DNA from: Hydrogenophilales bacterium
GTDB lineage: Bacteria; Pseudomonadota; Gammaproteobacteria; Burkholderiales; Eutrophovitaceae
NCBI GenBank assembly: GCA_902627495.1
Contig: CACOJS010000007.1
Coordinates: 11,089 to 75,088 of the forward strand
Length of the DNA stretch: 64,000 nucleotides
Direction: 5' to 3'
This document shows, in pieces, positions 692-29,800 of the stretch. The position numbers and the translations under genes were made by a program. Within the stretch, counting starts at the first letter, position 1. Each line of letters begins with the position of its first letter. The notes beneath the pieces are model-generated. The model ran no database searches. It was not told the DNA's origin and saw only the letters and a program-made list of their open reading frames with translations.

Positions 692-2227
692 CTAATTCTT
701 TGTTTGCTTATTTTCTTTAAAAGCAACTATCTCTGGAATACTATTTAATTTTTCCCTTATAAGGTTTTTTTGTACCTTGCCCATCGCATTTTTTGGTAGT
801 TTTTCTACCTCATAAATTAATTTTGGAACTTTATAATTTGCCAAGTTCTTTGCAAGATTTTCCAAAATTTGTTGCTCATTTGGCTTTTCGCCTTGTTTCC
901 CAACAATAATTGCAATAGCTACCTCTCCAAAATCATGATGGGGTACGCCAACTACAGCAACTTCTTCTATTTGGGGAAATTTTTCCAATAACTGCTCTAT
1001 CTCTTTCGGGTAAACATTGTATCCCCCTGAAATTATCATATCTTTTGATCTACCAACGATCGAGAGATAACCCTTCGGGTTTATAAAACCAAGGTCTCCA
1101 GTTTTGAACCATCCATCTTTGGAAAAATCTGTTTGTAATTTTTCAGGCATACGCCAATAGCCGGAAAAAAGGCTAGGACCCGTAATTTGAATACTACCTA
1201 TTTCGCCAAGCTCCAATGGTTTGTCGAGATCGCCTACTATACGTAGTTTATAAGATTTTAAGGGGAAACCGACTGTTCCCTCCAGACGATCACCATCTAA
1301 AGGGTTTGATGTAATAATGCCGGCCTCTGACATTCCATATCTCTCAAGAATTCTATGACCGGTAAGCTTTAAAAAAGCCCCAGCGGTTTCAACTGTTAGT
1401 GGTGCCGACCCTGAAATAAATAATCTGATATTTCTACATTGATCTACGTTTAAAGTTTTTTCTCTTAGCATTCGCTGGTAGTAAGTTGGTACTCCCATAA
1501 AAACGGTGGCCTCAGACAATTTTTTTACAACATGTTTAGCTTCAAATTTGTCATGCCATAAGATTTTAGCTCCCGCGATTAATGATGTGTGAAGAGCGAC
1601 AAAAAGACCATGAATGTGAAAAATCGGCAGAGCATGTAAAAGTGTATCCTTGTCTGAAAACTGCCATAGCTCTACAAGTAACGACGCATTTTCCGCCAAA
1701 TTACCGTGAGTCAACATGGCCCCCTTGGAGCGGCCGGTAGTTCCAGATGTATAGATCAGTGCAGCAACGTCGTTTTTTTTTCTGGTTACTATGTTGCAGT
1801 CGGGTAATACGTTTGTTTTATTGTTTTCAATATCCTCGAGCACTACTAGGGATAAATCACCTATTTCCTTAACTAGTTTTTCCAACATGTCATGCGAATT
1901 TACATCACAAACAACAATTTTAGGCTCTGAGTTTGACATAAAATAGAGGACCTCACTACCGCTATAAGCTGTATTCAAAGGGGCATAGACAATCCCCGCT
2001 TTAAGACAAGCTAGATATAGAGCTACTGCCTCTGGGCTCTTACCAACTTGAACAAGAAGTCTATCACCGGGAATTAAACCATAAGATACCAATTGTGTAG
2101 CATATGACGACACCTTATGAGACAAATCCTCATAAGTTAATACCTTCTTGGCCGACTCAATTGCCACTTGTTTAGGATACCGCAACATATTATTATGAAT
2201 TAGTTGGTAAAAGTTATGATTTTTCAT
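692..2227 (-). CDS. matB: Malonyl-CoA synthetase (malonate/methylmalonate-CoA ligase)
   Basis: ANL-family P-loop YTSGTTGRSKG plus MatB-type HALPIFHIHGLFVA, ERYGMSE and PKNAMGKVQK. Confidence 0.85.
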   Translation of the reverse strand: MKNHNFYQLIHNNMLRYPKQVAIESAKKVLTYEDLSHKVSSYATQLVSYGLIPGDRLLVQVGKSPEAVALYLACLKAGIVYAPLNTAYSGSEVLYFMSNSEPKIVVCDVNSHDMLEKLVKEIGDLSLVVLEDIENNKTNVLPDCNIVTRKKNDVAALIYTSGTTGRSKGAMLTHGNLAENASLLVELWQFSDKDTLLHALPIFHIHGLFVALHTSLIAGAKILWHDKFEAKHVVKKLSEATVFMGVPTYYQRMLREKTLNVDQCRNIRLFISGSAPLTVETAGAFLKLTGHRILERYGMSEAGIITSNPLDGDRLEGTVGFPLKSYKLRIVGDLDKPLELGEIGSIQITGPSLFSGYWRMPEKLQTDFSKDGWFKTGDLGFINPKGYLSIVGRSKDMIISGGYNVYPKEIEQLLEKFPQIEEVAVVGVPHHDFGEVAIAIIVGKQGEKPNEQQILENLAKNLANYKVPKLIYEVEKLPKNAMGKVQKNLIREKLNSIPEIVAFKENKQTKN

Positions 2228-3390
2228 GAGTTTAATATTTCATCTACTACTCTACTTTTTAGCAGATCAGTCGAACCGCCCCCCTCAAAAACTTTTTTAT
2301 CTGCTCCTAAAATTTCACCAACAACTGTTTTCGGTAAAAGAGTAATTTTTGAATTTTTCTTTGCTTTCACTACACTTGCCACCGAGCATAACGCCACATA
2401 TATACCACCACCAGCAAGCCCATCAATAATAACTTCTACGGATATATCCCTCGATTTGGCATCCGCTATACACAGGCCAACATGAGATAAAAAATCAGAC
2501 AAAACTAGTTTTTCTTCGGATAGTGTCATGATATGACTTGGTGAATTTAACGTAATTGATAAATTACCTCCATCAGGGAACCTAAGCAAATTATCAGCTA
2601 GAGAATAAGCCTCCCGTACCCCTACTGGATTCCCATCTCCCACCTTTGACTTAGACTTTGGTTCTATCAGTCTTTTTTGTGTTTGTCCCAAGAGCCTATT
2701 GCCTAGAGCAACATGAGACTTTGACAAATCTAATTTCGCGTTATCATTGTTTAGTAAAAAATGGTTTATTTTAGCTTTATAGGCTGAGCACCTGTCATCA
2801 CAAATATCGTGGAACGCACCAGCTTCAAGCCTAGCTACTCCTCCCAAATAATGGGTCGCTACGTTTGGTTTTAATTTGGGATTTATTTTACTATTACCTA
2901 TACCCCTAATAATCTTCGGTCCAGACATTCCATAAGATGCATGACGACTGGCTAAACGATACCCGCAGCTTGCAGCAATCATACTCGCCCCACCAAAACA
3001 ATTTTTGAGAACAATCGCCATCATCGGTTGTCCTTCTAATCTCGCTTTTAATATTTCGGCGAACATTAACCGGAACGCCCCTAGTGCTTTATATCCCTCT
3101 GTTAATCTAGCCCCACCAGAATCTAGTAGCAAAATGATTGGAGTACTGTTATCTCGGCTGCATTTCAGAACTGCCGACAACCTTGTGCTCTCAGCAAAGC
3201 CAAAAGTTCCACCATGAACTTTTCTATCAGTTAAAACGACTTCTGCAGTTTTACCTGCAACCTGACACCTTCCAATATACAAAGCCCCATGTGTTTCAAA
3301 ATACTTTATCTGGCTTCCAAATAACTTCTTAGCTTGTTCAAAACTAGTTAGATCCGAAAACCGGCTAGCGTCTTCTACAGCATGCACCAT
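2224..3390 (-). CDS. Carboxyltransferase-fold decarboxylase, apparent fusion of malonate decarboxylase beta (MdcD-like) and gamma (MdcE-like) subunits
   Basis: N-half has GGTFG, LLLDSGGARLTEG, CFGGASM and GMSGPKII (MdcD-like). C-half has PVGVREAYSLA, SHIMTLSEEKL and GLAGGGIYVAL (MdcE-like). ATGA overlap with matB. Confidence 0.7.
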   Translation of the reverse strand: MVHAVEDASRFSDLTSFEQAKKLFGSQIKYFETHGALYIGRCQVAGKTAEVVLTDRKVHGGTFGFAESTRLSAVLKCSRDNSTPIILLLDSGGARLTEGYKALGAFRLMFAEILKARLEGQPMMAIVLKNCFGGASMIAASCGYRLASRHASYGMSGPKIIRGIGNSKINPKLKPNVATHYLGGVARLEAGAFHDICDDRCSAYKAKINHFLLNNDNAKLDLSKSHVALGNRLLGQTQKRLIEPKSKSKVGDGNPVGVREAYSLADNLLRFPDGGNLSITLNSPSHIMTLSEEKLVLSDFLSHVGLCIADAKSRDISVEVIIDGLAGGGIYVALCSVASVVKAKKNSKITLLPKTVVGEILGADKKVFEGGGSTDLLKSRVVDEILNS

Positions 3391-4505
3391 TGACAGACTA
3401 TATCTTCATACGCAGCGGCGGCAGTTTCAATTGCACCGAGCTCGCAATACTCATCTGTCTGATGAGCCAATTCGGGTTTACCTGGACCCATTATAATAGT
3501 TGGAGGATAACTATAGGCCTCGTTTAATGCTGCTGCATCTGTAAAATATGTCGCCGTTTTTGGATCTGGCTTCTCACCGATGAGTGGAGACATAATTCTA
3601 TAAATTTCCTGTACCCAAGGGTCACTAGGTTCAGTAAATACCGGACCTACATCTAAAATTGTTTCCAATGTAACATCACTGTCAAGCGCATTCTGCAACG
3701 CCTCTTTGATTTTGTCATGAGGCGAGCTCGGAACAGTGCGAATATCTATTCCTATAGCTGTCTCATCTGGCACGGAATTAATGTTTAATCCTCCATTAAT
3801 CGTCCCAACATTCAATGATGCTTGACCCATTAAATGATGGGGGTCATTTTCAAATTTAAATTTTTCTAGTGCCACTAATACTCTGGCAGCTTTATACGCG
3901 GCATTTACTCCTTTTTCTGGCATTGATCCATGGGCCGTTACCCCATGAGTTTTAGCACTTATCCAATAAGCCCCCTTGTGGCCCAACATAGGGTAATTAG
4001 AAGTCGGCTCTCCTACCAAAACCGCACCCACTCGGCCAAGCAAACCTGGAGTGGCCACCAAACCAAAGGCACCTTGACATCCAGTCTCTTCCCCTGCCGT
4101 AAAAACCAACTCTAAACCGGGAGACCTATCGAGTTTTTTACCAAGCCCTGCTATTGCCGCAACAAAGGCGGCTATTCCCGACTTCATATCACTTGTTCCT
4201 CGCCCAAATAATTTTCCCTGATCAGTTTCTCCATCAAAGGGCGGTTTCTCCCATTTTGCAATTCCAAGGGGTACTGTATCTAAGTGACCTGTGAAACAAA
4301 GGGGTAACTTATTTTCCGCCCCACCAATCCTAGCTACAAGATTAGCTCGATTGGAGGCTAACTCATGATACTCCACCACAAATCCCTCTTTTTCCAATAG
4401 TGCTCCCAAGGTTTGTGCACAAGCAGTTTCATTACCCGGTGGATTAATAGTGTTCATCCTGACAATTTGTTTAGTAAGTTCGACTGCTAGATTACTTTTT
4501 CCCAT
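3375..4505 (-). CDS. M20A family metallo-amidohydrolase (ArgE/DapE-like)
   Basis: GHLDTVP, GRGTSDMKSG, GEETG, GEPT and AHQTDEY metal-ligand motifs. Confidence 0.9.
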   Translation of the reverse strand: MGKSNLAVELTKQIVRMNTINPPGNETACAQTLGALLEKEGFVVEYHELASNRANLVARIGGAENKLPLCFTGHLDTVPLGIAKWEKPPFDGETDQGKLFGRGTSDMKSGIAAFVAAIAGLGKKLDRSPGLELVFTAGEETGCQGAFGLVATPGLLGRVGAVLVGEPTSNYPMLGHKGAYWISAKTHGVTAHGSMPEKGVNAAYKAARVLVALEKFKFENDPHHLMGQASLNVGTINGGLNINSVPDETAIGIDIRTVPSSPHDKIKEALQNALDSDVTLETILDVGPVFTEPSDPWVQEIYRIMSPLIGEKPDPKTATYFTDAAALNEAYSYPPTIIMGPGKPELAHQTDEYCELGAIETAAAAYEDIVCQWCML

Positions 4506-4526
4506 ACGCTTTTCCCCAGATTTAAT

Positions 4527-5246
4527 CTATTCTCCCTGTCCAAAATAGGCTGCCTGCATTTGACTATTACTTTTCAACATACTAGACGTGCCGTGTGCTA
4601 CAACCTGTCCTTGAGCGAGAACATACCCATAATCAGATATCTCCAAAGTTTGCTTGACGTTTTGCTCAACTAAAAGGACTGTAATACCTCTCTCTTTAAT
4701 TTTTTGAATTACTTTAAAATTTTCTTTGACAAAAAGAGGAGACAGACCGAGAGACGGCTCATCTATAATCAATAGTTTTGGGGCTCCCATCAAACCCCTG
4801 CCGATAGATAGCATTGCCTGCTCCCCCCCCGACATCGTCCCCGCTAACTGCTGACCTCTGTTTGCTAGTTGAGGAAAAATACTCAAAACGCCTTCCATGC
4901 GATCTTGTGCCTTAGCTTTGCTCTTTTCGAGAATTGCTCCTATCAACAGATTTTCTCTCACTGTTAATTTAGGAAAGACTTTTCTCCCTTCAGGTATTGT
5001 TGAAACGCCCTGCCTTACTATATTATGGGTTTCTATGTTAGTTATTTCTTTTGTTTGATAAAAAACCTGTCCCTTTCTAGCTGGCGTTAAGCCTAACAAG
5101 ACACGAATTAAGGTTGATTTACCAGCCCCATTTGCACCTAGTAGACAAGTTATTTTACCTGGCTGAACTTTAAGAGATACCCCTGTTAACACATCCGCCT
5201 CATCATATCCAGCATAAATATTCTGAGTTTCTAGCATACTTTCCAT
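4527..5246 (-). CDS. livF: LIV/HAAT-family ABC transporter ATP-binding protein
   Basis: Walker A GANGAGKST, MSGGEQAML, DEPSLGLSP, LLVEQN. Confidence 0.9.
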   Translation of the reverse strand: MESMLETQNIYAGYDEADVLTGVSLKVQPGKITCLLGANGAGKSTLIRVLLGLTPARKGQVFYQTKEITNIETHNIVRQGVSTIPEGRKVFPKLTVRENLLIGAILEKSKAKAQDRMEGVLSIFPQLANRGQQLAGTMSGGEQAMLSIGRGLMGAPKLLIIDEPSLGLSPLFVKENFKVIQKIKERGITVLLVEQNVKQTLEISDYGYVLAQGQVVAHGTSSMLKSNSQMQAAYFGQGE

Positions 5247-5248
5247 GC

Positions 5249-6025
5249 TTAATCTTCTCCTAAATAAGCTGCCCTAACATCTTTATTCGTCGATACATCC
5301 CTGTAATCACCCTCTGCTATTTTTTTTCCGTAGCTCAAAACTATACATCTATCCGTGACTCTCTCAATAACGTTCATTTCATGCTCTATTAAAATTACTC
5401 CCAATTTTGGTGTTTTAATTTTTATTTCCATAAGGTCGGTCATAAAATCACGCGTCTCTTCATGAGTCATACCGGCAGAAGGCTCATCAAGTAATAAAAC
5501 GCTCGGCTTACTTATTAAAGCCCTACACACCTCTATGCGTCTTCTATCTATCATGGAAAGCTTTCCAATGGGTTGATAAATGTTATCGATTAATTTCGGG
5601 TTGAAAAATGCTAGAATTTCTTCTGCCTGCTCCAGTCGATTTTTTATATCTGCTCTTAAATTGCTGCGACGAAATACATTAAAATAGATCGAGGTATTAA
5701 GGTGCATCGCGTCACCAATAACCAAGTTGTCAAAAACTGACAAGCCAATGGCTAACCTCAGACGCTGAAAAGTTCTTGTAATTCCATTTCTGTAAATATT
5801 TTGGGGACTTGAATGTGTTATTTCTTTGTTTCTAAGCAATACTGATCCACTATTTTTCTTATAAAGACCGGTTATAGCATTGAAACAAGTGGTTTTCCCA
5901 GAGCCATTTGGCCCTATAAGACCAAGTAAGTCCCCTTCGCCAAGTTTGAAATCCAGGTTAGACAGAGCCGTTAGACCCCCAAATCTAACCGTCAGCCCCT
6001 CTACTTGTAATAAACTAGTTTTCAA
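5249..6025 (-). CDS. livG: LIV/HAAT-family ABC transporter ATP-binding protein
   Basis: RFGGLTAL, GPNGSGKTT, RTFQ, LLLDEPSAG, IEHEM and C-terminal VRAAYLG. Confidence 0.9.
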   Translation of the reverse strand: MKTSLLQVEGLTVRFGGLTALSNLDFKLGEGDLLGLIGPNGSGKTTCFNAITGLYKKNSGSVLLRNKEITHSSPQNIYRNGITRTFQRLRLAIGLSVFDNLVIGDAMHLNTSIYFNVFRRSNLRADIKNRLEQAEEILAFFNPKLIDNIYQPIGKLSMIDRRRIEVCRALISKPSVLLLDEPSAGMTHEETRDFMTDLMEIKIKTPKLGVILIEHEMNVIERVTDRCIVLSYGKKIAEGDYRDVSTNKDVRAAYLGED

Positions 6026-7178
6026 GCTTTCTCTCGCGCCCCCAAGTTCGGTAGAAGCTCCTTAAGCCTCTTTTTAACAAGCCCTCTGGCCTGTAGACCA
6101 GGACTAATATCACAAGAATCGAAAAAAGCAGAAACCTGTATTCCTGAATAAACTGCAGTTTTTCGGGTAATACTATTATCAAAAAAGATGCAGGAATTAC
6201 TCCAAGTGGATTACCAATACCACCCAAGATCACTATCGAAATTAAAATTAGAGAATCGGCAAAGGTAAAATTGGTCGGGGCTATATGGCCCAGCATCTGG
6301 GCATATAAACCACCAGCAAGCCCAATGAAAAAATTACCTAACGTGAAAGCAAGAATCTTCCAAGCAGCTATGTTGATCCCAAAGCAAGAGGCCACGGTCT
6401 CATCCAATCGTACAGCATCTAGATGCAAACCTAACCAAGATTTCTCTATAAGTCGAGTTATAATGAATACAACTAGCATGAGCAATAGTGCTGCTATAAC
6501 ATAACTCAGGTAGAAAGAACTACCTAGTAACGGCTCGTTGAAATCCAACCCAAAAAATTTAAAACTGGCTATCTTAAGCCCCTGGGGCCCACCCAAGGTA
6601 TCATTTATCTCTAAAAACGTTTTAAATAACAGAGCAAATGCAATCGTAACCAAGGCCGCATAATGTCCACGAGTTCTCAACACTGGCAATATAAGCAGAG
6701 AGCCTATTATTGCCGCCATTAAACCACCGAGTAAAATTACCAGGACATTCGGTATCGATTGGTTGGTTAAAACAGCAACTGTATATCCTCCAACTCCCAA
6801 AAATGCAGCTCCGGCAAAATTAGTCAATCCGGTATATCCCAGTTGCAGGGTGAGCCCTAAACAAGCTGTGGCGTAAATTGCAACTGATGCGATCATAAAC
6901 AATGCGAAATGCTCATGCCGGCAAAAGACTATTGCAATAATCACCGGCGACACAATAGTTAAATAAAAAACACAAGGATGTTCTCGATAAACCTGATCAA
7001 TTTTGTGTGGGATTCCTCGACCCTTTGCAATGAAAAATCCAAGTATCCCTAGCCCTATAATAGCCCCCAATAGCATCTCTTTTTCTACTATTAAAAAAGC
7101 TACAACTAAAATTGTTGTTATTGTGCTAGTTAAAAGTATTTCACAATACGTTACTAGGTATTTATCTTGCTTTTTCAT
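6015..7178 (-). CDS. livM: LIV/HAAT-family ABC transporter permease
   Basis: LGYTGLTNFAGAAFLGVGGY, LRTRGHYAALVTIAF, VILGGIG, RPEGLL. Confidence 0.9.
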   Translation of the reverse strand: MKKQDKYLVTYCEILLTSTITTILVVAFLIVEKEMLLGAIIGLGILGFFIAKGRGIPHKIDQVYREHPCVFYLTIVSPVIIAIVFCRHEHFALFMIASVAIYATACLGLTLQLGYTGLTNFAGAAFLGVGGYTVAVLTNQSIPNVLVILLGGLMAAIIGSLLILPVLRTRGHYAALVTIAFALLFKTFLEINDTLGGPQGLKIASFKFFGLDFNEPLLGSSFYLSYVIAALLLMLVVFIITRLIEKSWLGLHLDAVRLDETVASCFGINIAAWKILAFTLGNFFIGLAGGLYAQMLGHIAPTNFTFADSLILISIVILGGIGNPLGVIPASFLIIVLPEKLQFIQEYRFLLFSILVILVLVYRPEGLLKRGLRSFYRTWGRERKLEN

Positions 7179-8092
7179 ACTCGGTCCGAGTTAATCTCAG
7201 ATAATAGGCCTGTTGGTCGCCAGGCCATAATCATGATAATTACCACAAACGCGAATACATCTTTATAAGCAGGCACCGAAAACCAAATAGCACCGATGGT
7301 TTGTAAAAACGCAAATAAAAAACCTCCTATTATTGCACCAAGAAGGCTTCCTAGCCCTCCTACTACAGCTGCACTAAAGCCAATCACGCCTAAAAACAAT
7401 CCTCGGTCGAAAATTATTTCATGATAATAAAGTCCGTTCGCAACACCTGCCAACGCAGCCAACCCAGATCCTAAGGCGAACGTGCCCAAAACAATTCGCT
7501 TAAAATTTATTCCCATAAGGCGGGCTGTTTCCGGATCTTGTGCTACTGCCCTAATAGATAAGCCTAGTCTGGTTTTTCTTATTGCTAGATTTAAAATTAA
7601 TATTGCCAACAATCCACCAACAATTATTATTGCCGTATCTTGCCGTATTTCCATGGTCCCTATAATCCAAGAATTTTCAGGAAGGAGCCTCGGAAAAGGT
7701 TTTGGGTTGGATCCATTGGGATAAAACAATCTCACAGCCTCCCTTATAGCCAAACCCAGCATTAAAGTTATCAACAAAGTATTTAGAGGAGGTGCCCCTC
7801 TAAGAGGCAAGACTAAGTGTTGAGCAATTAAAGTTCCTAGAGTTGCCATTATTGAGATGGCGAAGAGCAGTGATATACATAAGTTGAGCCAAGTCGGAAA
7901 TTCTCCTAGCTGACTTAAAAAAAGAGATGCTATTAAAGCGGCAAAACTACCTGCCATTAAAACATCACCGTGGGAAAATTTTATTACGTTTAAAACACCA
8001 AAAAACAACGTGAACCCCACTGCTACCATTGCATAAATTACACCTAACACCAGACCATTAATTATGTGTTGATCCAATAAACTAAAGTCCAT
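7175..8092 (-). CDS. livH: LIV/HAAT-family ABC transporter permease
   Basis: NGLVLGVIYAMVAVGFTLFFGVLNVIKFSHGD, RAVAQDPETARLMGIN, AAVVGGLGS. Confidence 0.9.
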   Translation of the reverse strand: MDFSLLDQHIINGLVLGVIYAMVAVGFTLFFGVLNVIKFSHGDVLMAGSFAALIASLFLSQLGEFPTWLNLCISLLFAISIMATLGTLIAQHLVLPLRGAPPLNTLLITLMLGLAIREAVRLFYPNGSNPKPFPRLLPENSWIIGTMEIRQDTAIIIVGGLLAILILNLAIRKTRLGLSIRAVAQDPETARLMGINFKRIVLGTFALGSGLAALAGVANGLYYHEIIFDRGLFLGVIGFSAAVVGGLGSLLGAIIGGFLFAFLQTIGAIWFSVPAYKDVFAFVVIIMIMAWRPTGLLSEINSDRV

Positions 8093-8127
8093 TAATGGTT
8101 CCCTTGGTTAAATAGTAATCTTAATCT

Positions 8128-9279
8128 TCAACGTGAGAGTTGGCGTTGGCCAGATTGGTAATCACTTGCTTCCCAAATTACCCACTTACCATCTTGAACC
8201 ACAAACTTAGTTATCAACGGAACCATATTCTGTCCATTATCATCGAAACTTATCTTACCAATTACGGAATTATGGTCCTTAATCTGATTTAAAAATTTTG
8301 TAATTTTTTTTCTATCAGGTCCAACTGCCTCTACTGCTCGAATAATTAGGTTTGCAGCAGCAAAGGCAAAGGGACCATAAGCCTCGGGCGGAGATGAATA
8401 TTCCATTTCTTTATATTTAGTCAGAAACATTTTACCTCCTGGCAATCTCTCCGCCGAATCGCCCTCTCTAAACGCTAAAGTGCCTTCCGACAGGTTTCCG
8501 GTCCCCTCAATGTAAGCATCTGAAATAATTCCCGAAGTCCCCTGAAAAAGGGCCGGTATATTTAACCGATCCATTTGTGTTCTCACTCGAACTCCTATTG
8601 GTGTTATCCCTCCAAAATAAAGAACTTCGGGTTTGAGTGCCTTGATTTTTGTAAGTTCAGCATTAAAATCTTGTTGGTCAGCTGTTACCCCAAACCGCCC
8701 CAACACCTTCCCACCATACTTTTCTATACTTTCCGTAAAATACTTGTCGTGTCCTTTTCCATAATCAGTAGTATCATGAATGATGGCCCAGTTTCTATAT
8801 CCCTGATCAATCATAAAGCGTGCAGCGACATCATTTTGATTAATCATTGTTCCGTTTACCCGATGGATTTCGGGATAGTCATTTCCGTACGTAATTTCTG
8901 GTAAGACAGCCCCCCAGACTATCATTGGCAAGGCAAACTTATGGAACACATCAACGGTACCAACAGCTACTGCGGAGCAATAATGAGCTACAGCTCCAAA
9001 TATCTTGGAGTCTGCCGCTGCCTTTGTGGCAACTTGGATACCTATGTTAGGTTTACACTCATCGTCAAGAACAACTAGTTCATATTGATATTTTTTCGAT
9101 GTGTCGGCGTTGGCCAGTTTTATTGCTAGATCGGCTGAGTTTCTGCCCCCTATCCCGTTTGCAGATACCCCACCTGTTAACGGACCTATAAATGCTATTT
9201 TAACAAGATCTGTTTCATTTGAAGAACATCCAAATAAAAACACCCCCAGCGACAGCATAATCAATAGAATACGATTCAT
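8128..9279 (-). CDS. LivK/LivJ-like substrate-binding protein, predicted lipoprotein
   Basis: VKIAFIGPLTG, DDECKP and GAVAHYCS periplasmic-binding type 1 motifs. Likely start is ATG at 9279 (MNRILL...LFGC lipobox); the ORF track starts at 9297. Confidence 0.85.
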   Translation of the reverse strand: MNRILLIMLSLGVFLFGCSSNETDLVKIAFIGPLTGGVSANGIGGRNSADLAIKLANADTSKKYQYELVVLDDECKPNIGIQVATKAAADSKIFGAVAHYCSAVAVGTVDVFHKFALPMIVWGAVLPEITYGNDYPEIHRVNGTMINQNDVAARFMIDQGYRNWAIIHDTTDYGKGHDKYFTESIEKYGGKVLGRFGVTADQQDFNAELTKIKALKPEVLYFGGITPIGVRVRTQMDRLNIPALFQGTSGIISDAYIEGTGNLSEGTLAFREGDSAERLPGGKMFLTKYKEMEYSSPPEAYGPFAFAAANLIIRAVEAVGPDRKKITKFLNQIKDHNSVIGKISFDDNGQNMVPLITKFVVQDGKWVIWEASDYQSGQRQLSR

Positions 9280-9322
9280 GAGTGCCCCCATTCCCATCCG
9301 ATGTTAGAACTTAATTCATTTT

Positions 9323-9351
9323 AGCGTAGAGCTACTCGGCCTGAATGTCAA
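9323..9351 (-). promoter_or_regulatory. Putative sigma70 promoter of the ABC/M20/mdcDE/matB operon
   Basis: Minus strand reads TTGACA-17 bp-TACGCT upstream of the binding-protein gene. Confidence 0.55.
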
Positions 9352-13820: not shown

Positions 13821-14357
13821 CTATTTTGAAAGACTAGAACTCATGTCTTTTAATTTTCCGCTAATTGACATATCCCAAACTTTGTCCCCAACTTCTACTT
13901 TAACCCCACCAATTAGCCCTTTATCTATTTCAACTAGTGGGGTTATTTTTTTATTGATACTTTTAGAAAATATACCCACTAATTTATCCAAATCGATTTT
14001 CTCTAATTGATAAGCAGATTTTATTTTCACATCAACAGAACCCTTTTCAGCTGCTTTAAGAGTCTCATAAAGCGTCCTTATTACTGGTAAAAGTGATAGT
14101 CGATTATTTTTGATCAATACACGCATAAAATTATGGGACCACTCACTTGTGATTCCGTCCATAACCTGTAGAAACGCTGACTCTATCTCTTGGTTAGTTG
14201 TTTGTGGTTGACCGATGAAATTTTTCATTTGACTATCTTCAAAAATACCAACCATAGTCATCAACTCTTCTGACATCTGATCAAATTTGTTTTTCGATTT
14301 AGCAAGCCCAAACATAGCCTCTGCATAAGGCCTCGCAATCGTCACCACTTCAGCCAC
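13821..14357 (-). CDS. atpH: F1 ATP synthase delta subunit
   Basis: TIARPYAEAMF and LIGGVKVEVGD; operon position. Confidence 0.95.
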   Translation of the reverse strand: MAEVVTIARPYAEAMFGLAKSKNKFDQMSEELMTMVGIFEDSQMKNFIGQPQTTNQEIESAFLQVMDGITSEWSHNFMRVLIKNNRLSLLPVIRTLYETLKAAEKGSVDVKIKSAYQLEKIDLDKLVGIFSKSINKKITPLVEIDKGLIGGVKVEVGDKVWDMSISGKLKDMSSSLSK

Positions 14358-14359
14358 AA

Positions 14360-14833
14360 TTAACCAAACTCCTTTTCCAAGTCCTGTAGTAACTTCTTAT
14401 GAACCGCGTGATCAACTTCTTTCCTCAATATTTTTTCCGCACCCGCAACCGCCAACATAGACAATTGAGACCGCAACTCCTCTTTAGCACGAGTGATTTC
14501 CTGCTCGATATCGCCTTTGGCCGCCTCAACAATTCTCTCAGCCTCCAGCTGGGCCTTTTCTTTAGCTTGCTCTAAAACTTCTACCCCTCTTTTTTCGGCT
14601 TGAACAACAATTTCGGCTGCATTTGATTTAGCGTCTGAAATTACAACCTCAGATTGTTTGGCGGCTTGTTCTAACTCTTTTCTTCCCTTCTCCGCTGCTG
14701 CCAATCCGTCAGCAATTTCCGCCTGACGATCTTGCATAGCTTTTTGGAGAGGTGGCCAAATATACTTCATGGTTATCCAAATAAAGAAAGCAAACCAAAT
14801 GACATGTCCCAAGAGTGTAGCGTTAATATCCAC
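14360..14833 (-). CDS. atpF: Fo ATP synthase subunit b
   Basis: INATLLG...MKYIWPPL N-terminal TM followed by coiled coil. Confidence 0.95.
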   Translation of the reverse strand: MDINATLLGHVIWFAFFIWITMKYIWPPLQKAMQDRQAEIADGLAAAEKGRKELEQAAKQSEVVISDAKSNAAEIVVQAEKRGVEVLEQAKEKAQLEAERIVEAAKGDIEQEITRAKEELRSQLSMLAVAGAEKILRKEVDHAVHKKLLQDLEKEFG

Positions 14834-14864
14834 TGTTAATTTCTCCCTAAAGAACTGACTTTAA

Positions 14865-15155
<291 letters not shown>

Positions 15156-15193
15156 TTAAAAATCATTATCAAACCAAATAAAGCTTTCTACAA

Positions 15194-16385
<1,192 letters not shown>

Positions 16386-16400
16386 AAAAACTCCTGAGGC

Positions 16401-16429
16401 ATTCTATTTATGTGACCCTTTGATGTCAA
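16401..16429 (-). promoter_or_regulatory. Sigma70 promoter of atp operon
   Basis: Minus strand reads TTGACA-17 bp-TAGAAT just upstream of the atpI SD. Confidence 0.75.
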
Positions 16430-16463
16430 CGCCTAGCAATTAAAAAGACTCTTAAAGCCAAAG

Positions 16464-17315
16464 TCATTGCTTTAACTTCGACAATAAATGATCCAATTGA
16501 TCAAGGTTACCATAATGAATGATTAATTTACCCACTCCACTCTTTTTGTGCTGTATCTCAACAGTAGCACCCAATACTGACCCAATTTCCTCCTCCAACC
16601 TTTTTATGTCTCTTGATTTAGTAACCGGCAATTTACCGGACTTAAGCTTTGTTTCAACTCCACTATTAACTAACTGTTCTGTCTCTCGAACCGATAACCT
16701 CAAGCTAACTACCCTCCTGGCAATTTCGAGCTGAGACGACTTCTCTAATGAGAGCAATGCCCTAGCATGCCCCATATCGATAGAACCATCCTTGAGTAAC
16801 TTTTGAACCTCCTTATCCAAGAGGAGTAACCTCAATAAATTGGAAATAGCACTTCGAGATTTGCCTAATGATTTAGCTATAAGCTCATGTGTCAACCCAA
16901 ACTCTTTTACTAAGCGATTAACCCCTGCGGCTTCCTCAAGAGGGTTCAGATCTTCCCGCTGGATATTCTCGATAAGAGCCATGGACATCGCCGATTGATC
17001 AGGTACATCCCGAACTATAACAGGTACGCTCTCCAGCCCCGCAATCTGAGCAGCTCGCCACCGCCGCTCCCCTGCTATTATTTCGTATTTTTTCGAACCG
17101 ACAGACCGAACCAAAATAGGCTGAATTAATCCTTGTGATTTGATTGAGCTCGCCAAAGACTTTATAGCTTCATCACTTATAAATGTTCTGGGCTGATAGC
17201 TGCCTGGCTTAATAGAAGTCACTGGCAACTCAAATGGCTTTTCCGTTTCAGTAGCTTTTTCCTCCTGGGCCAGCAGAGCATCTAGGCCTCGCCCCAATCC
17301 TTTTATTTTTGCCAT
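16464..17315 (-). CDS. parB: Chromosome partitioning protein ParB
   Basis: GLGRGLDALL, IIAGERRWRAA, ALIENIQREDLNPLEEA, HTH KSRSAISNLLRLL. Confidence 0.97.
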   Translation of the reverse strand: MAKIKGLGRGLDALLAQEEKATETEKPFELPVTSIKPGSYQPRTFISDEAIKSLASSIKSQGLIQPILVRSVGSKKYEIIAGERRWRAAQIAGLESVPVIVRDVPDQSAMSMALIENIQREDLNPLEEAAGVNRLVKEFGLTHELIAKSLGKSRSAISNLLRLLLLDKEVQKLLKDGSIDMGHARALLSLEKSSQLEIARRVVSLRLSVRETEQLVNSGVETKLKSGKLPVTKSRDIKRLEEEIGSVLGATVEIQHKKSGVGKLIIHYGNLDQLDHLLSKLKQ

Positions 17316-17327
17316 TAATTTTCCTGT

Positions 17328-18092
17328 CTAGCTGTTGTGACCCATAACCTCTCGTGCAAGATCTAAATATGCCAAAGCCCCCCTAGAAGTCGCATCAAAA
17401 TTCACAACTGGATGCCCGTGGCTTGGAGCCTCAGCAACCCTTACATTACGGGGTATAACTGTTCTATAGACTTTATCCCCAAAATGATCTTCAAGGTCAT
17501 CCGAAACTTGGCGCGTTAACGAGTTTCTGGGGTCATACATGGTTCGTAATAAACCCTCAATTTGAAGGGTTTCATTCAATTTAATTCTTATCCGCTTTAT
17601 AGTTTCCACAAGATCCCTTAATCCTTCTAAAGCATAGTATTCACATTGCATCGGTATCATTACCGCACTAGCCGCTGTGAACGCATTAACCGTCAACAAA
17701 CTCAGTGCAGGAGGACAATCTATTAACACATAGTCATATTGATCCTGAACTTGTGATAATGCCTTTTTTAATCTTGTTTCTCTGCCTTTAATATCCACCA
17801 ACTCTACCTCACCACCAGCCAAGTGACGATTAGCTGGAAGCACATCATAACCTCCTTCACTGCTTTTTTTTAAAGCCGACCTTATACTACTTTGTCCCAA
17901 CAAAACTTGATAGATCGTTGGGGTAACATTGTGTTTATCGAGACCACTTCCGGTAGTTGCATTTCCTTGTGGGTCTAGATCTATAAGTAAAACTCGCCTT
18001 CCAGCTAAACTTAAACTTGCCGCCAAGTTAATCGCTGTGGTAGTTTTCCCAACACCACCTTTCTGATTTGCAATTGCCAAAATTTTCGACAC
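17328..18092 (-). CDS. parA: Chromosome partitioning ATPase ParA
   Basis: Deviant Walker A NQKGGVGKTT, DLDPQGNAT, AEAPSHG. Confidence 0.97.
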   Translation of the reverse strand: MSKILAIANQKGGVGKTTTAINLAASLSLAGRRVLLIDLDPQGNATTGSGLDKHNVTPTIYQVLLGQSSIRSALKKSSEGGYDVLPANRHLAGGEVELVDIKGRETRLKKALSQVQDQYDYVLIDCPPALSLLTVNAFTAASAVMIPMQCEYYALEGLRDLVETIKRIRIKLNETLQIEGLLRTMYDPRNSLTRQVSDDLEDHFGDKVYRTVIPRNVRVAEAPSHGHPVVNFDATSRGALAYLDLAREVMGHNS

Positions 18093-18094
18093 TT

Positions 18095-18739
18095 TTACAA
18101 CTCCTCCTTCTCGAGAATTGGTGCCATAAATACAACATTTCTCTTTTGTAGAACGAATGGTATGCCAAGAGGAATAATTTCCTTAACAGAGTTAGCTGGT
18201 AGAGAATCCATTTCTATTTTATTTAACTGACCCTTCATCGCCACTAAGAAACCTTCTTCTTTGCATAGATGGCTTGTCTTTTTTAAAAAAATATCAAGAC
18301 TCGAAAATGCTCGCGATACCACACAGGAAAACCGAGTGGTTGGGTAGAAATCTTCTACCCTACTTAAAACAACTTCTAAATTCGACAAACCCAGATTCGT
18401 CGATACTTCCTGCAAAAATGCGTACTTTTTTTGATTACTATCTAAAAGTGTGATTTTCTTCTGGGGATTTGTAATTGCCAACACTATGCCTGGGAACCCT
18501 GCCCCTGACCCGACATCAACCAGCGAGGATCCTGATATGTATTTCTGAAGAGCCAAACAATCAAGAAAATGGTGAGTCCACCAGCGAGCAGTATTTTTTA
18601 TTCCCGTTAAATTATAAATTTTATTCCACTTGTCCAAAAGATGAAAATAACGTCTAAATAAAATTAACTTCCTTCTCTCAATGGGCAAATCGAGGGTTTC
18701 TGCTCCTTTTAAAAACTCTTGTTCCCCTAGTGAGGCCAA
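18095..18739 (-). CDS. rsmG: 16S rRNA m7G527 methyltransferase
   Basis: KWNKIYNLTG, DVGSGAGFPG, SRAF; lies between mnmG and parA. Confidence 0.95.
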   Translation of the reverse strand: MASLGEQEFLKGAETLDLPIERRKLILFRRYFHLLDKWNKIYNLTGIKNTARWWTHHFLDCLALQKYISGSSLVDVGSGAGFPGIVLAITNPQKKITLLDSNQKKYAFLQEVSTNLGLSNLEVVLSRVEDFYPTTRFSCVVSRAFSSLDIFLKKTSHLCKEEGFLVAMKGQLNKIEMDSLPANSVKEIIPLGIPFVLQKRNVVFMAPILEKEEL

Positions 18740-18748
18740 TTGGTATCC

Positions 18749-20638
18749 TTAAGGTGTTTTATGAAAAGTGTGCATTCTTATGCGCTTCATGTGAACAGAA
18801 AGCAAAGCTACAGCTGCTGGCGTTATTCCCGGTATTCTTGAAGCTTGACCCATCGTAGTAGGCTTTCGTTTGGTCAAGATCTGCCTAGCCTCGGTGGACA
18901 ATCCGCTAACCTGTCCATAATCTAGGTTTTTGGGAAGCTTCAAGGTGTCAAAACCCATCTGCCGACTTACTTCTTTTTGTTGGCGATTGATATAGCCTTC
19001 GTACTTTATCTGGACCTCTATCTGAAACTTTACCGACTCCTCAAGATTATCGTTTTGGAAGTTAGTTGATTCTAACAAATCATCAAATTTAAAGCCCGGG
19101 CGTTTCAACAAGTCTGAAGCTTTGAATTTGGTTTGTTTTTTTGTGCTAAATATCTGTTTTATATGATTTTTATTTGGCTCAACGGCATTTGAAGATCTGA
19201 CTAATTTAAGTCCTCTATCTATAGCCTCTCTCTTTTCGCAAAACTTAACCCATCGTGCATCTGCAATCAACCCTAACTCACGACCAACCGGAGTCATCCT
19301 TAGATCGGCGTTATCTTCTCTCAAACTAAGCCTATACTCTGCCCGACTGGTAAACATTCGATAAGGCTCTAACACCCCTTTTGTAACAAGGTCATCTATC
19401 ATTACCCCAATATATGAAGAACTACGATGTGGAACCCATGGCTCCAGACACCTAGTTTGGCGGGATGCATTAATGCCTGCAATTAGCCCTTGTGCAGCTG
19501 CTTCTTCGTAGCCGGTTGTCCCATTAATCTGGCCAGCTAAAAAAAGTCCTCCTAATAATTTTGTCTCTAATGATAGCTTGAGGGACCTAGGATCAAAATA
19601 ATCATATTCTATGGCATAACCAGGCCTTAAGACCGAGCATTTTTCTAGACCTTTTATAGATTTAATAAATTCCAACTGCACCTCGAACGGCAGGCTCGTC
19701 GAAATGCCATTGGGATAAATCTCGTTTGTGGTTAGGCCCTCTGGTTCCAAAAACACCTGATGACTCTGCTTATCCGAAAAACGAGTGACCTTATCCTCTA
19801 TCGATGGACAATACCTGGGTCCTTTACCTTCGATAGCCCCTGAGAACATTGGAGATTGATGAAGATTGTCTTTAATTAACTGATGAGTCTGTAGATTGGT
19901 ATGGGTAATCCAACAACATTTTTGCGAAGGATGGCTGGATCTACTCCCTATGAATGAGAATACCGGCCTTGGATCGTCACCTGGTTGAGTTTCAAGTCGC
20001 CCGAAATCAATGGTGTTTCCGTCCAATCTTGGTGGCGTGCCAGTTTTTAGACGTCCCACTGGAAGAGACAAATCTCTTAAATTGTCGGATAGGAAAGTTG
20101 ATGCTGGGTCGCCAGCACGGCCTGCACTATAAGAACGGTCACCAATATGAATCTGTCCCGCCAGAAAGGTTCCAGCTGTTAAAACAACAGATCTGCTCCC
20201 AACAAAAATTCCGGTTTCAGTAACTATTCCTACGACCTGGTTATTTTGAGTTTTTATCTCCTTAACTCCTTGCTGCAGGAGTGACAAGTTCTTTTGTGCT
20301 TCGAGAACTGACCGAATTGCTTGCTTATAAAGCAGTCGGTCTGCTTGAACCCTGGTGGCTCGAACAGCAGGCCCTTTACTGCGATTTAAAACGCGAAACT
20401 GAATTCCTGATAAATCTGCCGCATGAGCCATCACGCCCCCTAATGCATCTATTTCCTTTACGAGGTGACTTTTTCCTAAACCTCCGATAGAAGGGTTGCA
20501 TGACATTTGACCAAGGGTATCAAGGTTGTGAGTGATTAGCATAGTGCTACTTCCGGACCGAGCAGAAGCCAACGCTGCCTCGGTTCCAGCATGACCACCA
20601 CCCACAACTATTACATCAAAACTATTAGGGTATTTCAT
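18749..20638 (-). CDS. mnmG: tRNA uridine-5-carboxymethylaminomethyl modification enzyme MnmG/GidA
   Basis: [48 protein letters not shown]. Likely ATG at 20638; the ORF track starts at 20668. Confidence 0.98.
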
Positions 20639-20676
20639 ATTAATAACTTTAAACTTTACAAACACCAAGGTTTGTG

Positions 20677-20692
20677 TGTTTCACGTGAAACA
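20677..20692. promoter_or_regulatory. parS: parS centromere site
   Basis: Perfect 16-bp palindrome TGTTTCACGTGAAACA matching the widespread parS consensus, upstream of mnmG-rsmG-parAB. Confidence 0.92.
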
Positions 20693-20708
20693 TCGCGTTA
20701 TAACCATT

Positions 20709-22046
20709 TTACTTACCAACACAAAATTTAGCGAATATTTCTCCTAAAATATCGTCTGGACAGACCTCTCCTGTTACCAGACCCAGGCTGCTGTTCGCTA
20801 ACCTGAGCTCTTCAGCTAAAAGCTCCATATGGTCTACAACACTGAGGCTTTGCTTAGTATGTTTCAAGCATTGCTTAATAGCCGAAATCTGTCGACCGCT
20901 TGCCATAAAAGTAGTGTCTTCAATTTCCCCGCTCCCAATGGATTCAAAGATAGCCCGTTTTAGCAAGTCTATATCTTTATCATCCCTAGCTGACATTGAT
21001 ACGAACAACCCATCACCTTCCTCCCAAGTTCTTGGTTTTTCGCTTCTAAGATCTGATTTATTAATTATTTCTATGAGCTTTACCTCTGAACCAAGCTGCT
21101 CATGGAGCTCCTCACTGACTCTGTTAGGTTTTGGGTGCTCTTTGACATGCAAAACAACATTTGCTGTCTTCAGCTCTTTTTTTGTTCTCTCAATGCCCAG
21201 GTGTTCGATAGGGTCTTTACTATTTCTAATCCCAGCTGTATCTATGAGCTGTACTGGAAGGCCTTCTATTTCCAACTGTCCCACCAAGTAGTCTCTTGTG
21301 GTCCCTGGTATATCGGTTACCAGTGCCCTTTCATTCTTCAGAAGTCTGTTAAAAATAGTAGACTTTCCTACATTCGGTTCCCCAAAAATTACCACTTTTA
21401 TTCCTTGTTGCAAGAGTAATCCGTTTTCAACATTTGTAACCAAGTTGTCTAATAGAAGGTTAATTTCTCTCAGTTTCTGCAGGAAATAAATACTTGGAAG
21501 GTCAGAAATTTCCTCGTCGGAAAAATCAATTTGTGCTTCAACCTGTGCTCTAAGATCAATCAGATGATTTGCTATCTGACTAACTTGTTTTGACGACTCA
21601 CCTTGCATTGACCGATTAGCACTCCGAACAGCCTTGGCAGTGGTGGCGTTAATTAACTGGGCGACATTTTCCGCCTGAATTAAATCCATTTTCCCATTTA
21701 AAAAGGCTCTCTTGGTAAATTCACCAGCCTCAGCGGGCCGGGCTCCCAATTCAACACATCTGTCAAACAAAAGTCTTTGGACAACTAAACCACCGTGTCC
21801 TTGAAGTTCCAAAACATCCTCCCCAGTGTATGAATTGGGCTTGGTAAAAAGAATTGAAACCCCCGAATCAATCACCTGGTTGGTAGCATCATAAAACTTT
21901 GAAACAGTAGCTTGGCGTGGACTAAGGAGCCTCTGGCAAATTGTGGTACTGATCTCTTTGGCTGATGGACCAGACACCCTTAATACCCCTATTCCAGCTT
22001 TTCCTATAGCCGTTGCTGAGGCTACAATAGTATCATTTGGATACAT
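20709..22046 (-). CDS. mnmE: tRNA modification GTPase MnmE/TrmE
   Basis: DTIVASAT, SYTGEDVLELQGHGG, GEPNVGKS, DTAGIR and C-terminal FCVGK. Confidence 0.98.
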   Translation of the reverse strand: MYPNDTIVASATAIGKAGIGVLRVSGPSAKEISTTICQRLLSPRQATVSKFYDATNQVIDSGVSILFTKPNSYTGEDVLELQGHGGLVVQRLLFDRCVELGARPAEAGEFTKRAFLNGKMDLIQAENVAQLINATTAKAVRSANRSMQGESSKQVSQIANHLIDLRAQVEAQIDFSDEEISDLPSIYFLQKLREINLLLDNLVTNVENGLLLQQGIKVVIFGEPNVGKSTIFNRLLKNERALVTDIPGTTRDYLVGQLEIEGLPVQLIDTAGIRNSKDPIEHLGIERTKKELKTANVVLHVKEHPKPNRVSEELHEQLGSEVKLIEIINKSDLRSEKPRTWEEGDGLFVSMSARDDKDIDLLKRAIFESIGSGEIEDTTFMASGRQISAIKQCLKHTKQSLSVVDHMELLAEELRLANSSLGLVTGEVCPDDILGEIFAKFCVGK

Positions 22047-23703: not shown

Positions 23704-23835
23704 AATAAATATATCCTTGTATCATTTCCCCTTATGCGAGACCCTTCCATTACTACCCACCAAAAAAAGATGGGTGGTTTTTTTTAATGCTTTAAATCAA
23801 CATTATAGAGCCTCTTTATTTCCTTGTTATGCCGC

Positions 23836-24054
23836 CTAGTCTCGGGGCATATCAATACCCCCTTGATGCCACGGATGGCATTTAACCAACCGTTTAAAAC
23901 CTAGGGACACCCCGGTAACAACTCCCTTACTTTTTACACTATCCAACATATATTGCGAGCAGGTTGGATAAAATCGACAACGCCTTCCCATCAACGGTGA
24001 AATTGCCAATTGGTAAAACCTCAAGAAAATGATTATAAGACTCTTCAAACTCAA
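23836..24054 (-). CDS. yidD: Membrane protein insertion efficiency factor YidD
   Basis: YQLAISP, CRFYPTCSQY, KCHPWHQGG. Confidence 0.95.
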   Translation of the reverse strand: MSLKSLIIIFLRFYQLAISPLMGRRCRFYPTCSQYMLDSVKSKGVVTGVSLGFKRLVKCHPWHQGGIDMPRD

Positions 24055-24374
24055 AACTCTCGTAACAACCTCAAAAGCTGCCGGACAAAAACTTTGTGGT
24101 TAGCCTTAGGAACCAAACTTCTTACCCTTACAACAATATCCAAATTTCCTTTATTCCCAATTTCTTTCCGAATAGTTTCCCGGATAACCCGTCGTATTCG
24201 ATTTCTATCGACGGCTCGCGGACATACTCTATTAGGTATAACAACTCCTAGCCTCACAGCCCGACTCTCGAGAAAATTCTTCCGGGCAAGAATCACCACC
24301 CCACCACTCCCAGACATAAAAGGAAATCTTCCCCTATAATTAGCTTTTCCTGCTAATCCAAGTGGCTTCATCAC
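24051..24374 (-). CDS. rnpA: Ribonuclease P protein component
   Basis: RLGVVI and RNR motif AVDRNRIRRVIRE, DIVV; lies between rpmH and yidD. Confidence 0.88.
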   Translation of the reverse strand: MMKPLGLAGKANYRGRFPFMSGSGGVVILARKNFLESRAVRLGVVIPNRVCPRAVDRNRIRRVIRETIRKEIGNKGNLDIVVRVRSLVPKANHKVFVRQLLRLLREF

Positions 24375-24397
24375 TGTGGCCAGAATAGCTGGTACCT

Positions 24398-24532
24398 TTA
24401 GACGCTCACCCTCGTTCTGCCTTTGGCCCTCCTAGCATTGACAATTAATCTTCCACTTTTAGTTTTCATCCGGGCCCGAAAACCATGCGTCCTTGCCCTG
24501 CGAACCTTAGACGGTTGATAAGTTCTCTTCAT
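24398..24532 (-). CDS. rpmH: 50S ribosomal protein L34 (not in ORF track, 44 aa)
   Basis: Manual translation gives [44 protein letters not shown]. Confidence 0.97.
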
Positions 24533-24634
24533 TTTAATTTATATATTCCATAGTACTAAAACCGCATAATGGTACACCCCTAAACCTAATTTTTGTTAAT
24601 TTCAGAAAATTTTTTTTATTTTTGCCAGATCTTC

Positions 24635-24704
24635 TGTGGATAACTTTGCCGGTCACTGTTAGAATCTACCATGGGGGTTTGGTTAGCCAACGCCTTTATC
24701 CACC
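24635..24704. promoter_or_regulatory. DnaA boxes in rpmH-dnaA intergenic region
   Basis: Perfect TGTGGATAA at 24635-24643 and TTATCCACC (1 mismatch) at 24696-24704. Confidence 0.8.
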
Positions 24705-24719
24705 TCATTATCAGGAGTA

Positions 24720-26054: not shown

Positions 26055-26260
26055 TAGAACAGTGGATAAATCTTTTATTAATTTGTTAGCAAACCATCCT
26101 TCACCGCTATCCGCAAATAATCCACAATTAGTGCACTCACTCCCTTTCTTTTATTTTCACTTTATCATTTCCCTAAATCAATGTAAGCAAACCGTTTTTA
26201 TCGCTTATCCACTGTTTTTCTCCTTACTAATTATTATTATTAATTTATATAAATAAACTT
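26055..26260. other. Probable replication origin oriC (dnaA-dnaN spacer)
   Basis: DnaA boxes AGTGGATAA (26061-69), TAATCCACA (26118-26) and TTATCCACT (26205-13), then TTA/CTA trinucleotide repeats (26224-42) and a 30-bp A/T-only run (26228-57). Predominant gene orientation flips near here. Confidence 0.75.
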
Positions 26261-29783
<3,523 letters not shown>

Positions 29784-29800
29784 ATCAACCTAAAATATCT

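Follow-up and report, generated by a model that had tools for sequence, protein, structure and literature searches.

Eight minus-strand open reading frames fill positions 692-9297 of the stretch analysed here, 64,000 nucleotides of contig CACOJS010000007.1 from a Hydrogenophilales bacterium (hereafter the window). They encode a LivJ-type ATP-binding cassette (ABC) importer with its binding protein (SBP), an M20 family deacylase (M20), a single-chain carboxyltransferase-fold protein of 388 amino acids for which we use the working name CT, and the synthetase MatB (Table 1). The source genome (G000) is a 1.7-Mb assembly of 34 contigs that is 81.5% complete. The original prediction for this locus was of a catabolic operon that imports and deacylates an N-malonyl (or methylmalonyl) amino acid or amide and decarboxylates the released malonate, and its identification of the ABC importer, M20 and MatB is borne out by Pfam and NCBIfam. 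Our verdict is that the operon is a variant form of malonate metabolism in which one enzyme belongs to an uncharacterised family. MatB and the ArgE/DapE-type enzyme are members of their families, and the operon proteins fall outside MdcD, MdcE, MCD, DapE, ArgE and LIV-I.

Table 1. Features of the operon, in window positions; all lie on the minus strand.
Feature	Position	Strand	Basis
Putative sigma-70 promoter: TTGACA (9351-9346), 17 nt, TACGCT (9328-9323)	9323-9351	-	Read from sequence
Binding protein (SBP), HAAT/LIV-type ABC importer	8128-9297	-	Peripla_BP_6 146 bits (Pfam)
LivH/UrtB-like permease	7175-8092	-	BPD_transp_2 140.8 bits; UrtB 160 and LivH 151 bits, both below cut-off
LivM-like permease	6015-7178	-	BPD_transp_2 (Pfam); NCBIfam; ATGA overlap with livH
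LivG-like ATPase	5249-6025	-	ABC_tran and BCA_ABC_TP_C; LivG 215.9 bits, below cut-off
LivF-like ATPase	4527-5246	-	ABC_tran 108.9 bits; LivF 240 bits, below cut-off
ArgE/DapE-family di-metal deacylase (M20A)	3375-4505	-	TIGR01910 232.8 bits (cut-off 217.6)
CT, MdcD-like N domain and AccA/MdcE-like C domain	2224-3390	-	AlphaFold2 model, profile, context
MatB, (methyl)malonyl-CoA synthetase	692-2227	-	NF005702 673.4 bits (cut-off 558)

The genes are tightly packed. ATGA overlaps read directly in the sequence join livH to livM and CT to matB, the ATG start of CT lies 16 nt inside the 3' end of the M20 gene, and livG, which begins with TTG, shares 11 nt with livM by its coordinates; the remaining intergenic gaps measure 35, 2 and 21 bp. 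Coordinates and direct reading of the junctions thus agree with the predicted layout of eight same-strand genes with overlaps or gaps of at most 35 bp. The proposed promoter stood only in part. Its TTGACA-17-TACGCT sequence is present, and ATTGACA is invariant within an atpC-SBP spacer that is otherwise 60% identical among three genomes of the genus. On the other hand, the -10 element TACGCT matches TATAAT at only three of six positions, for which reason a consensus scanner did not list the site, and promoter-like sites in the region did not exceed chance (18 found, 23.9 expected from shuffled sequence). Judged from the sequence, positions 692-9351 appear to be best explained as a single operon that lies downstream of atpC and is served by a promoter of its own.

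The eight-gene arrangement exceeds chance, because its order recurs in two collections of loci, which also answers the question whether M20, an HAAT-type importer, CT and matB co-occur elsewhere. All eight genes are present in the window order in 14 of 19 relatives' loci. Among these 19, one lacks matches to livH and SBP (L018), one ends at a contig edge (L025), one has matB matched in two pieces (L023), and in two or three, from genus g5, the layout is different. The second collection draws on contigs of one genome per species and consists of 80 CT-centred loci, those most like the window CT among 139 confirmed stretches; their context was taken from tblastn-based tables. M20 lies directly upstream of CT in 43 of these 80 loci, 30 of them with a LIV-type importer, 7 with a Dpp-type importer, 1 with neither (L099) and 5 too short. 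According to Pfam, the importer that stands in place of the LIV-type in the seven loci is a divergently transcribed Dpp/Opp-type peptide importer. A livF fragment persists beside M20 in some of the Dpp-type loci and in the importer-less L099, and therefore the LIV-type importer was replaced or deleted in place, while the M20-CT-matB trio persisted through swap and loss alike. The Dpp-type swap is seen at the atpC-TauE site in L043, L044, L053 and L065 (about 2850-8600), and L041, L050, L055 and L099 are also among the loci of swap or loss. Wherever an M20-type locus has enough flanking DNA, it is bounded by atpC on one side and by a convergent TauE gene on the other. In the window the operon follows the atp operon, about 15 kb from dnaA in the origin region, a position that accounts in part for its rigid synteny. 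Many relatives have, past matB and before TauE, a gene for a 2-oxoglutarate (2OG)-Fe(II) oxygenase of about 200 amino acids (PF13640) in the orientation of the operon (e.g. L065 12755-13360); neither the window nor L030, its nearest relative, has this gene.

The AlphaFold2 model of CT (pLDDT 90, pTM 0.91) superposes over its whole length on the fused AccD-AccA chain 9kkm_A (Z 25.6, 358 of 388 residues, root mean square deviation 2.7) and, by this alignment, consists of two crotonase-like domains arranged as in AccD-AccA. The N domain matches the fold of Pseudomonas MdcD (5vip_B; Z 25.2, root mean square deviation 2.4 over 219 residues, 24% identity), and a profile of 22 CT sequences matches both the 12S transcarboxylase (5.9e-30) and MdcD (2.5e-26). 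The SAGARL, CFGGAS and MSGP loops of CT align with the matching loops of MdcD, including the GG(V/A)R and CFGG oxyanion-hole loops, and the GG loop of the C domain aligns with YGGSY of 12S. One study places the oxyanion hole of MdcD at Val121 and Gly162 and reports that MdcD-MdcE decarboxylates malonyl-CoA in vitro (PMC5534430). CT nevertheless falls well short of the cut-offs of the MdcD and MdcE equivalogs (TIGR03133, 70.0 against 278 bits; NF005530, 74.2 against 228; TIGR03134, 42.1 against 237), and by these scores it is a separate single-chain family rather than MdcD plus MdcE. The C-terminal 158 amino acids alone found no match among PDB sequences at E <= 10; the likeness of the C domain to AccA/MdcE rests on the structural alignment of the whole model and on P0161, a predicted CT-MatB fusion whose C half of CT (residues 250-352) scores 37.3 bits with Pfam MdcE at a cut-off of 32.7. 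The family is small, with 174 cluster representatives at E <= 1e-30 in an exhaustive search of 1.84 billion, and its members go by no database names other than 'carboxyl transferase domain-containing', 'enoyl-CoA hydratase' and 'hypothetical'; a word-indexed search for homologs yielded few close relatives of CT.

The best solved relative of MatB is the Rhodopseudomonas palustris enzyme 4fuq, of which it is clearly an ortholog (464 bits over residues 14-496); MatB is predicted to be active on malonate or methylmalonate. CT and MatB form the most firmly associated pair of the operon. In 70 of the 77 loci with enough downstream DNA, the gene next after CT encodes a MatB ortholog (at least 40% identity); the seven exceptions are four loci in aerobic benzoyl-CoA (box) clusters, two contig ends with truncated matB fragments of low identity, and a single CT-DUF1178 locus. 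We also surveyed 301 genomes of the order including G000, all of them at least 85% complete save G000 itself. Full-length CT, defined as at least 260 bits over approximately positions 3-390 and counted from the match table, was found in 41 of the 301, and all 41 have MatB, as compared to 47 of the 260 others. In addition, two predicted proteins, P0130 (939 amino acids) and P0161 (899 amino acids), are CT-MatB fusions, 47% and 44% identical to the window MatB, and belong to separate clusters at 50% identity; either they count as Rosetta-stone evidence of coupling or they stem from assembly frame errors at an ATGA overlap. Taken together, we regard a functional coupling of CT and MatB as highly probable.

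The searches did not find the partners that classical malonate systems would require. Those for MdcA and MdcC (PF16957, PF06857), with controls that matched in E. coli, were negative in G000 and in all five relatives examined, each at least 90% complete, and therefore the thioester must come from MatB as a CoA ester. CT has no malonyl-CoA decarboxylase (MCD, or MatA) domain (PF05292) in the Pfam scan; MCD was not found in the seven sampled genomes of the window's family, in an order-wide search that matched 74 of the 301 genomes, nor in G000 when searched alone, in a run whose controls also matched nothing. Neither a biotin carrier nor a biotin carboxylase nor a membrane decarboxylase subunit is encoded among the eight operon genes or the scanned neighbour genes. 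These profile searches of G000 and its relatives uphold the earlier distinction of the operon from the classical matABC and mdc systems. The fold, the conserved oxyanion loops and the obligatory pairing with MatB lead us to infer a decarboxylation independent of biotin and of the acyl carrier protein (ACP), and on this structural and sequence likeness CT would rather probably decarboxylate a malonyl-type CoA ester. The earlier label of an MdcDE-type decarboxylase therefore holds for the MdcD-like fold and the oxyanion loops; it does not hold for the family, a single chain below the MdcD and MdcE cut-offs, and malonyl-CoA itself may not be the substrate, as MCD accompanies CT in part of the loci described below.

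Compared with the biotin-independent malonate decarboxylase MdcABCDEGH, CT thus shares an MdcD-like N domain and its aligned loops but is one chain where the Mdc enzyme has two subunits, and it stands without the MdcA and the MdcC/ACP of that system. With MatABC of Rhizobium the operon shares the MatB ortholog and the logic of turning malonate into malonyl-CoA and then decarboxylating it. It differs in that no MCD-family MatA was found in G000 and the seven family genomes and no MatC-type carrier is present, in that CT stands in the place of MatA, and in that the operon has, in addition, an M20 deacylase and an ABC importer of the amino-acid type. The system would thus work in the manner of MatAB, but with a catalytic core of the MdcD/E type that acts on CoA esters and with a DapE-like deacylation feeding it.

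M20 belongs to the ArgE/DapE subfamily by its TIGR01910 score, and its motifs H74xD76, D106, E139-E140, E166 and H348 align with those of DapE and ArgE; we take these to be the metal ligands, following the ligand numbering of DapE. It shares the fold family and metal motifs of the two enzymes but scores below the equivalog cut-off of each (DapE, TIGR01246, 124.3 against 361.8 bits; ArgE, TIGR01892, 185.6 against 297.7). A study of AbDapE reports Arg179, Gly325, His195' and Tyr198' as contacts of succinate (PMC10809365). M20 keeps only the His of these in the alignment: Arg179 is replaced by H176 (followed by K177) and Tyr198' by M195, and Gly325 falls outside the aligned region. The HKG motif of M20 is that of E. 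coli ArgE, and thus nothing in the predicted pocket points specifically to a dicarboxylic acyl group.

The importer has the five-component HAAT architecture of the LIV-I system of E. coli (LivJ/K-HMGF), and the solved structures closest to SBP are LivK, LivJ, Brucella 4n0q and Atu2422, all of them amino-acid binders, LivK and LivJ being the closest. However, every component scores below the LIV equivalog cut-offs of NCBIfam, SBP reaching 128.4 bits on the LivJ/LivK branched-chain binder model NF011933 (cut-off 477), and the pocket changes in SBP are conserved. By these sequence comparisons the importer is not a member of LIV-I. When compared with the LivJ ligand contacts listed in PMC6983066, 6 of 11 positions are altered in SBP and kept so in its orthologs (Y18N, L77Y, T102V, Y202L/I, E226S and F276Y). 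At the E226 position the five nearest solved binders of amino acids all have an acid, E or D, and each of the 33 sequences compared, that is, the window SBP and 32 orthologs, has Ser (S255 in SBP); the Y18 position is N (N47 in SBP) in 31 of the 33. The alpha-carboxylate-side residues S108 and Y179 are retained. We take E226 of LivJ to be the residue that holds the alpha-ammonium group of the ligand, and the loss of an acid at this position would fit an N-blocked ligand. Also different from LIV-I, the N-terminus of SBP (9235-9297) carries a lipoprotein-type signal, MNRILLIMLSLGVFLFGC, with an LFGC box; the ATG at 9279 may be a likelier start than that at 9297.

These components can be assembled into the following scheme. 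The importer would take up an amino acid bearing an N-acyl group, or else an amide resembling a dipeptide, as suggested by the acid lost at the E226 position and by the interchange with a peptide importer, and M20 would hydrolyse it in the cytoplasm. MatB, whose family is established and whose substrate is predicted, would activate the released malonate-type dicarboxylate to its CoA thioester, from which CT would remove the free carboxyl group, using neither biotin nor the Mdc acyl carrier protein, to give acetyl-CoA, or propionyl-CoA in the case of methylmalonate. On sequence grounds N-malonyl (or N-methylmalonyl) amino acids would be the likeliest substrate class; N-malonyl conjugates of D-amino acids and of 1-aminocyclopropane-1-carboxylic acid occur in plants. 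The chain as a whole, from import through deacylation and MatB to decarboxylation by CT, is a real possibility that we stop just short of calling probable. The weakest step is that the acid released by M20 would be malonate or a substituted malonate that MatB activates; the gene arrangement is suggestive of it, but the linkage may be a single ancestral event and the pocket of M20 shows no positive sign of a second carboxylate.

Does the operon, then, encode one pathway, or two independent modules that share a promoter at a conserved near-origin site, one scavenging N-acyl amino acids or dipeptides and the other, CT-MatB, serving the salvage or detoxification of malonate or methylmalonate? Several observations weigh against a single pathway. 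All joint loci occupy one inherited site, between atpC and TauE, so that their linkage may go back to one ancestral event, and the related genomes are not independent of each other. Each module also occurs alone: CT-matB is found without M20 in 37 of the 80 loci, and M20 orthologs of 54-56% identity accompany livHMGF or dppABCDF with no adjacent MatB, in the order livHMGF, crotonase gene, M20 in L136 and as dppABCDF-M20 among amidases in L138. In 14 of the 37 M20-less loci CT shares the locus with canonical MCD, the order being CT-matB-MCD on the same strand in 10 and MCD lying divergently upstream in 4, and MCD is also present in 12 of the 41 CT genomes of the survey. The only CT homolog of genus g5 (about 27% identity) lies inside a box cluster. 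Finally, at the succinate-contact positions the pocket of M20 looks ArgE-like and not DapE-like. Against two independent modules, the stop of M20 and the start of CT overlap by 16 nt, and in four relatives' loci the M20 match extends 13 nt beyond the CT start; the trio of M20, CT and matB is kept through importer swap and loss; and in genus g5 M20 and matB are adjacent even without CT. Moreover, using an M20 ortholog threshold of at least 55% identity, which 37 of the 301 genomes reach, MatB is present in 35 of these 37 as compared to 53 of the 264 others. Family f20 follows this association although its genes are unlinked, M20 (L136) and MatB lying on different contigs; in G227, dppABCDF-M20 lies among other amidases, 110 kb from MatB. 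The genomes are related and such counts overstate independence; the joint loci are spread over about five or six families. On this evidence two independent modules seem unlikely, if by no means negligible, and a single pathway remains our preferred reading.

The remaining alternatives concern single components. CT could be the carboxyltransferase half of a biotin-dependent reaction that passes CO2 from a malonyl-type CoA to free biotin or the biotin carboxyl carrier protein of the cell. Its best fold and profile matches do include AccD6, PccB and 9kkm besides the 12S transcarboxylase, with whose YGGSY the C-domain GG loop aligns, but its N domain is equally close to the biotin-independent MdcD, the C half of P0161 exceeds the Pfam cut-off for MdcE, its 388 amino acids fall well short of the 500-550 of PccB-type subunits, and neither the operon nor its scanned neighbours encode a biotin carrier or membrane decarboxylase subunit; we consider this improbable. 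Equally hard to sustain is direct import of malonate or another dicarboxylate with M20 as a passenger. Peripla_BP_6 proteins include carboxylate binders encoded beside CoA ligases, in the g5 variant a benzoate-CoA ligase goes together with a transporter of this type and with a CT homolog, and SBP lacks the acid that would bind an amino group. Yet the nearest solved relatives of SBP all bind amino acids and S108 and Y179 are kept, the importer that substitutes in seven loci is of the peptide type and an unlikely malonate carrier, and M20 is retained in all importer variants, which makes this explanation quite improbable. Least of all do we expect M20 to be simply the DapE of lysine synthesis or the ArgE of its genome, the outcome that would have undone the original prediction. 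In its favour, canonical dapE was not found in G000 or in G002 (66% complete), where the operon M20 is the best DapE-model match at 123.9 bits. But a canonical DapE scoring 538-566 bits is encoded elsewhere in five relatives (G001, of the same genus, G004, G010, G015 and G019), whose operon M20 scores 122-131 bits on that model, and dapD, too, was not found in G000 and G002. As dapD adjoins dapE in G010 and G001 (both are present in G001, split over contig ends), their joint absence from G000 and G002 is probably a single recurrent assembly gap, that is, one unassembled locus. For arginine synthesis G000 has ArgJ (401.9 bits, cut-off 298), and ArgE exceeded its cut-off in none of five genomes examined. 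A role of M20 as DapE or ArgE was therefore rejected. In G010 the ArgJ match (G010:C4:517665-518849) contains four in-frame stops (one TGA, one TAG and two TAA) and is possibly a pseudogene or an assembly error.

A further candidate role, that of CT as a general substitute for MatA with a complementary distribution, was rejected in view of the genomes and loci, cited above, that have both. Since CT and MCD occur in the same loci, CT is not simply equivalent to MatA and may act on substituted malonyl-CoA; it may prefer methylmalonyl-CoA or another 2-substituted malonyl-CoA. In the window's family, without MCD in its seven sampled genomes, it may serve malonyl-CoA as well. Besides MCD in 14, the 37 M20-less loci contain DUF1178 in 22 and a YdiJ-like FAD/Fe-S oxidase in 16. 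A recurrent operon among them consists of genes for the YdiJ-like oxidase, CT, MatB and MCD followed by DUF1178 or an SBF-family transporter (L130 5810-13893; also L070, L076, L080, L082, L084, L086, L087, L092 and L098). In mammalian mitochondria a MatB-type synthetase works with malonyl-CoA decarboxylase and a crotonase-fold decarboxylase for substituted malonyl-CoA in the clearance of malonate and (m)ethylmalonate. The FAD/FeS-CT-MatB-MCD loci parallel this ACSF3/MLYCD/ECHDC1 system, but lineage and enzyme families differ and the parallel is one of analogy only.

In a literature search of a limited collection, no paper was found that described this cluster or a single-chain MdcDE-like enzyme encoded next to MatB, and none dealt with the hydrolysis of N-malonyl amino acids by bacteria. 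That the operon constitutes an undescribed route for N-malonyl or N-methylmalonyl amino acids, ending in a new single-chain decarboxylase free of biotin and ACP that is obligatorily paired and sometimes fused with MatB, is a tentative proposal, and in this full form a doubtful one. If this is true, bacteria would have a third means of decarboxylating activated malonate in addition to MatA/MCD and the Mdc/Mad holoenzymes, the small unnamed CT family would acquire a function, and N-acylated amino acids would be indicated as a pool from which uncultured Burkholderiales draw carbon or nitrogen. Being a compact two-gene module, the CT-MatB pair might also serve to control the levels of malonyl-CoA or methylmalonyl-CoA in engineered strains. 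If the modules are independent, what is left is a conserved yet ordinary operon and one uncharacterised enzyme.

Some variant loci and tallies deserve mention in their own right. In genus g5 (L134 2125-12790 and L135 1814-12500) the order is atp, LIV-type importer, M20, matB, 2OG-Fe(II) oxygenase, TauE, with CT missing from its usual place and M20 and matB spaced by 35 bp in L134. The box cluster of the same genus (L068 2135-16110) contains boxB, boxC, a regulator, a flavodoxin, a benzoate-CoA ligase, a binding protein, CT and livHMGF-like genes, CT lying between the binding-protein and permease genes, and further encodes a 265-aa protein without known family and a 3-hydroxybutyrate-dehydrogenase-like short-chain dehydrogenase/reductase; CT homologs lie in box clusters in L101, L103 and L107 as well. 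The amide-hydrolysis cluster of G227 (L138 1364-14286), in which M20 is 55% identical, comprises an amidase, dppABCDF, M20, an amidase-signature enzyme, a second M20 enzyme of the allantoate-amidohydrolase/carbamoylase type and an MlrC-like peptidase. Three of the survey tallies include one unpublished genome each: G049, a partial MdcD-like match among the 75 of 301 genomes matched by CT at E <= 1e-25 and outside the 41, G218 within the 74 genomes with MCD, and G298 in the M20 tally, where it belongs to the two genomes that have no MatB. The conclusions do not hinge on these three. An Rfam scan of the whole window gave no match at the gathering score. Positions 14000-32400 of the window form the origin neighbourhood, with yidC, mnmE, mnmG, rsmG, parA, parB and the atp operon on the minus strand and dnaA, dnaN and gyrB, followed by a topA-like gene, on the plus strand.

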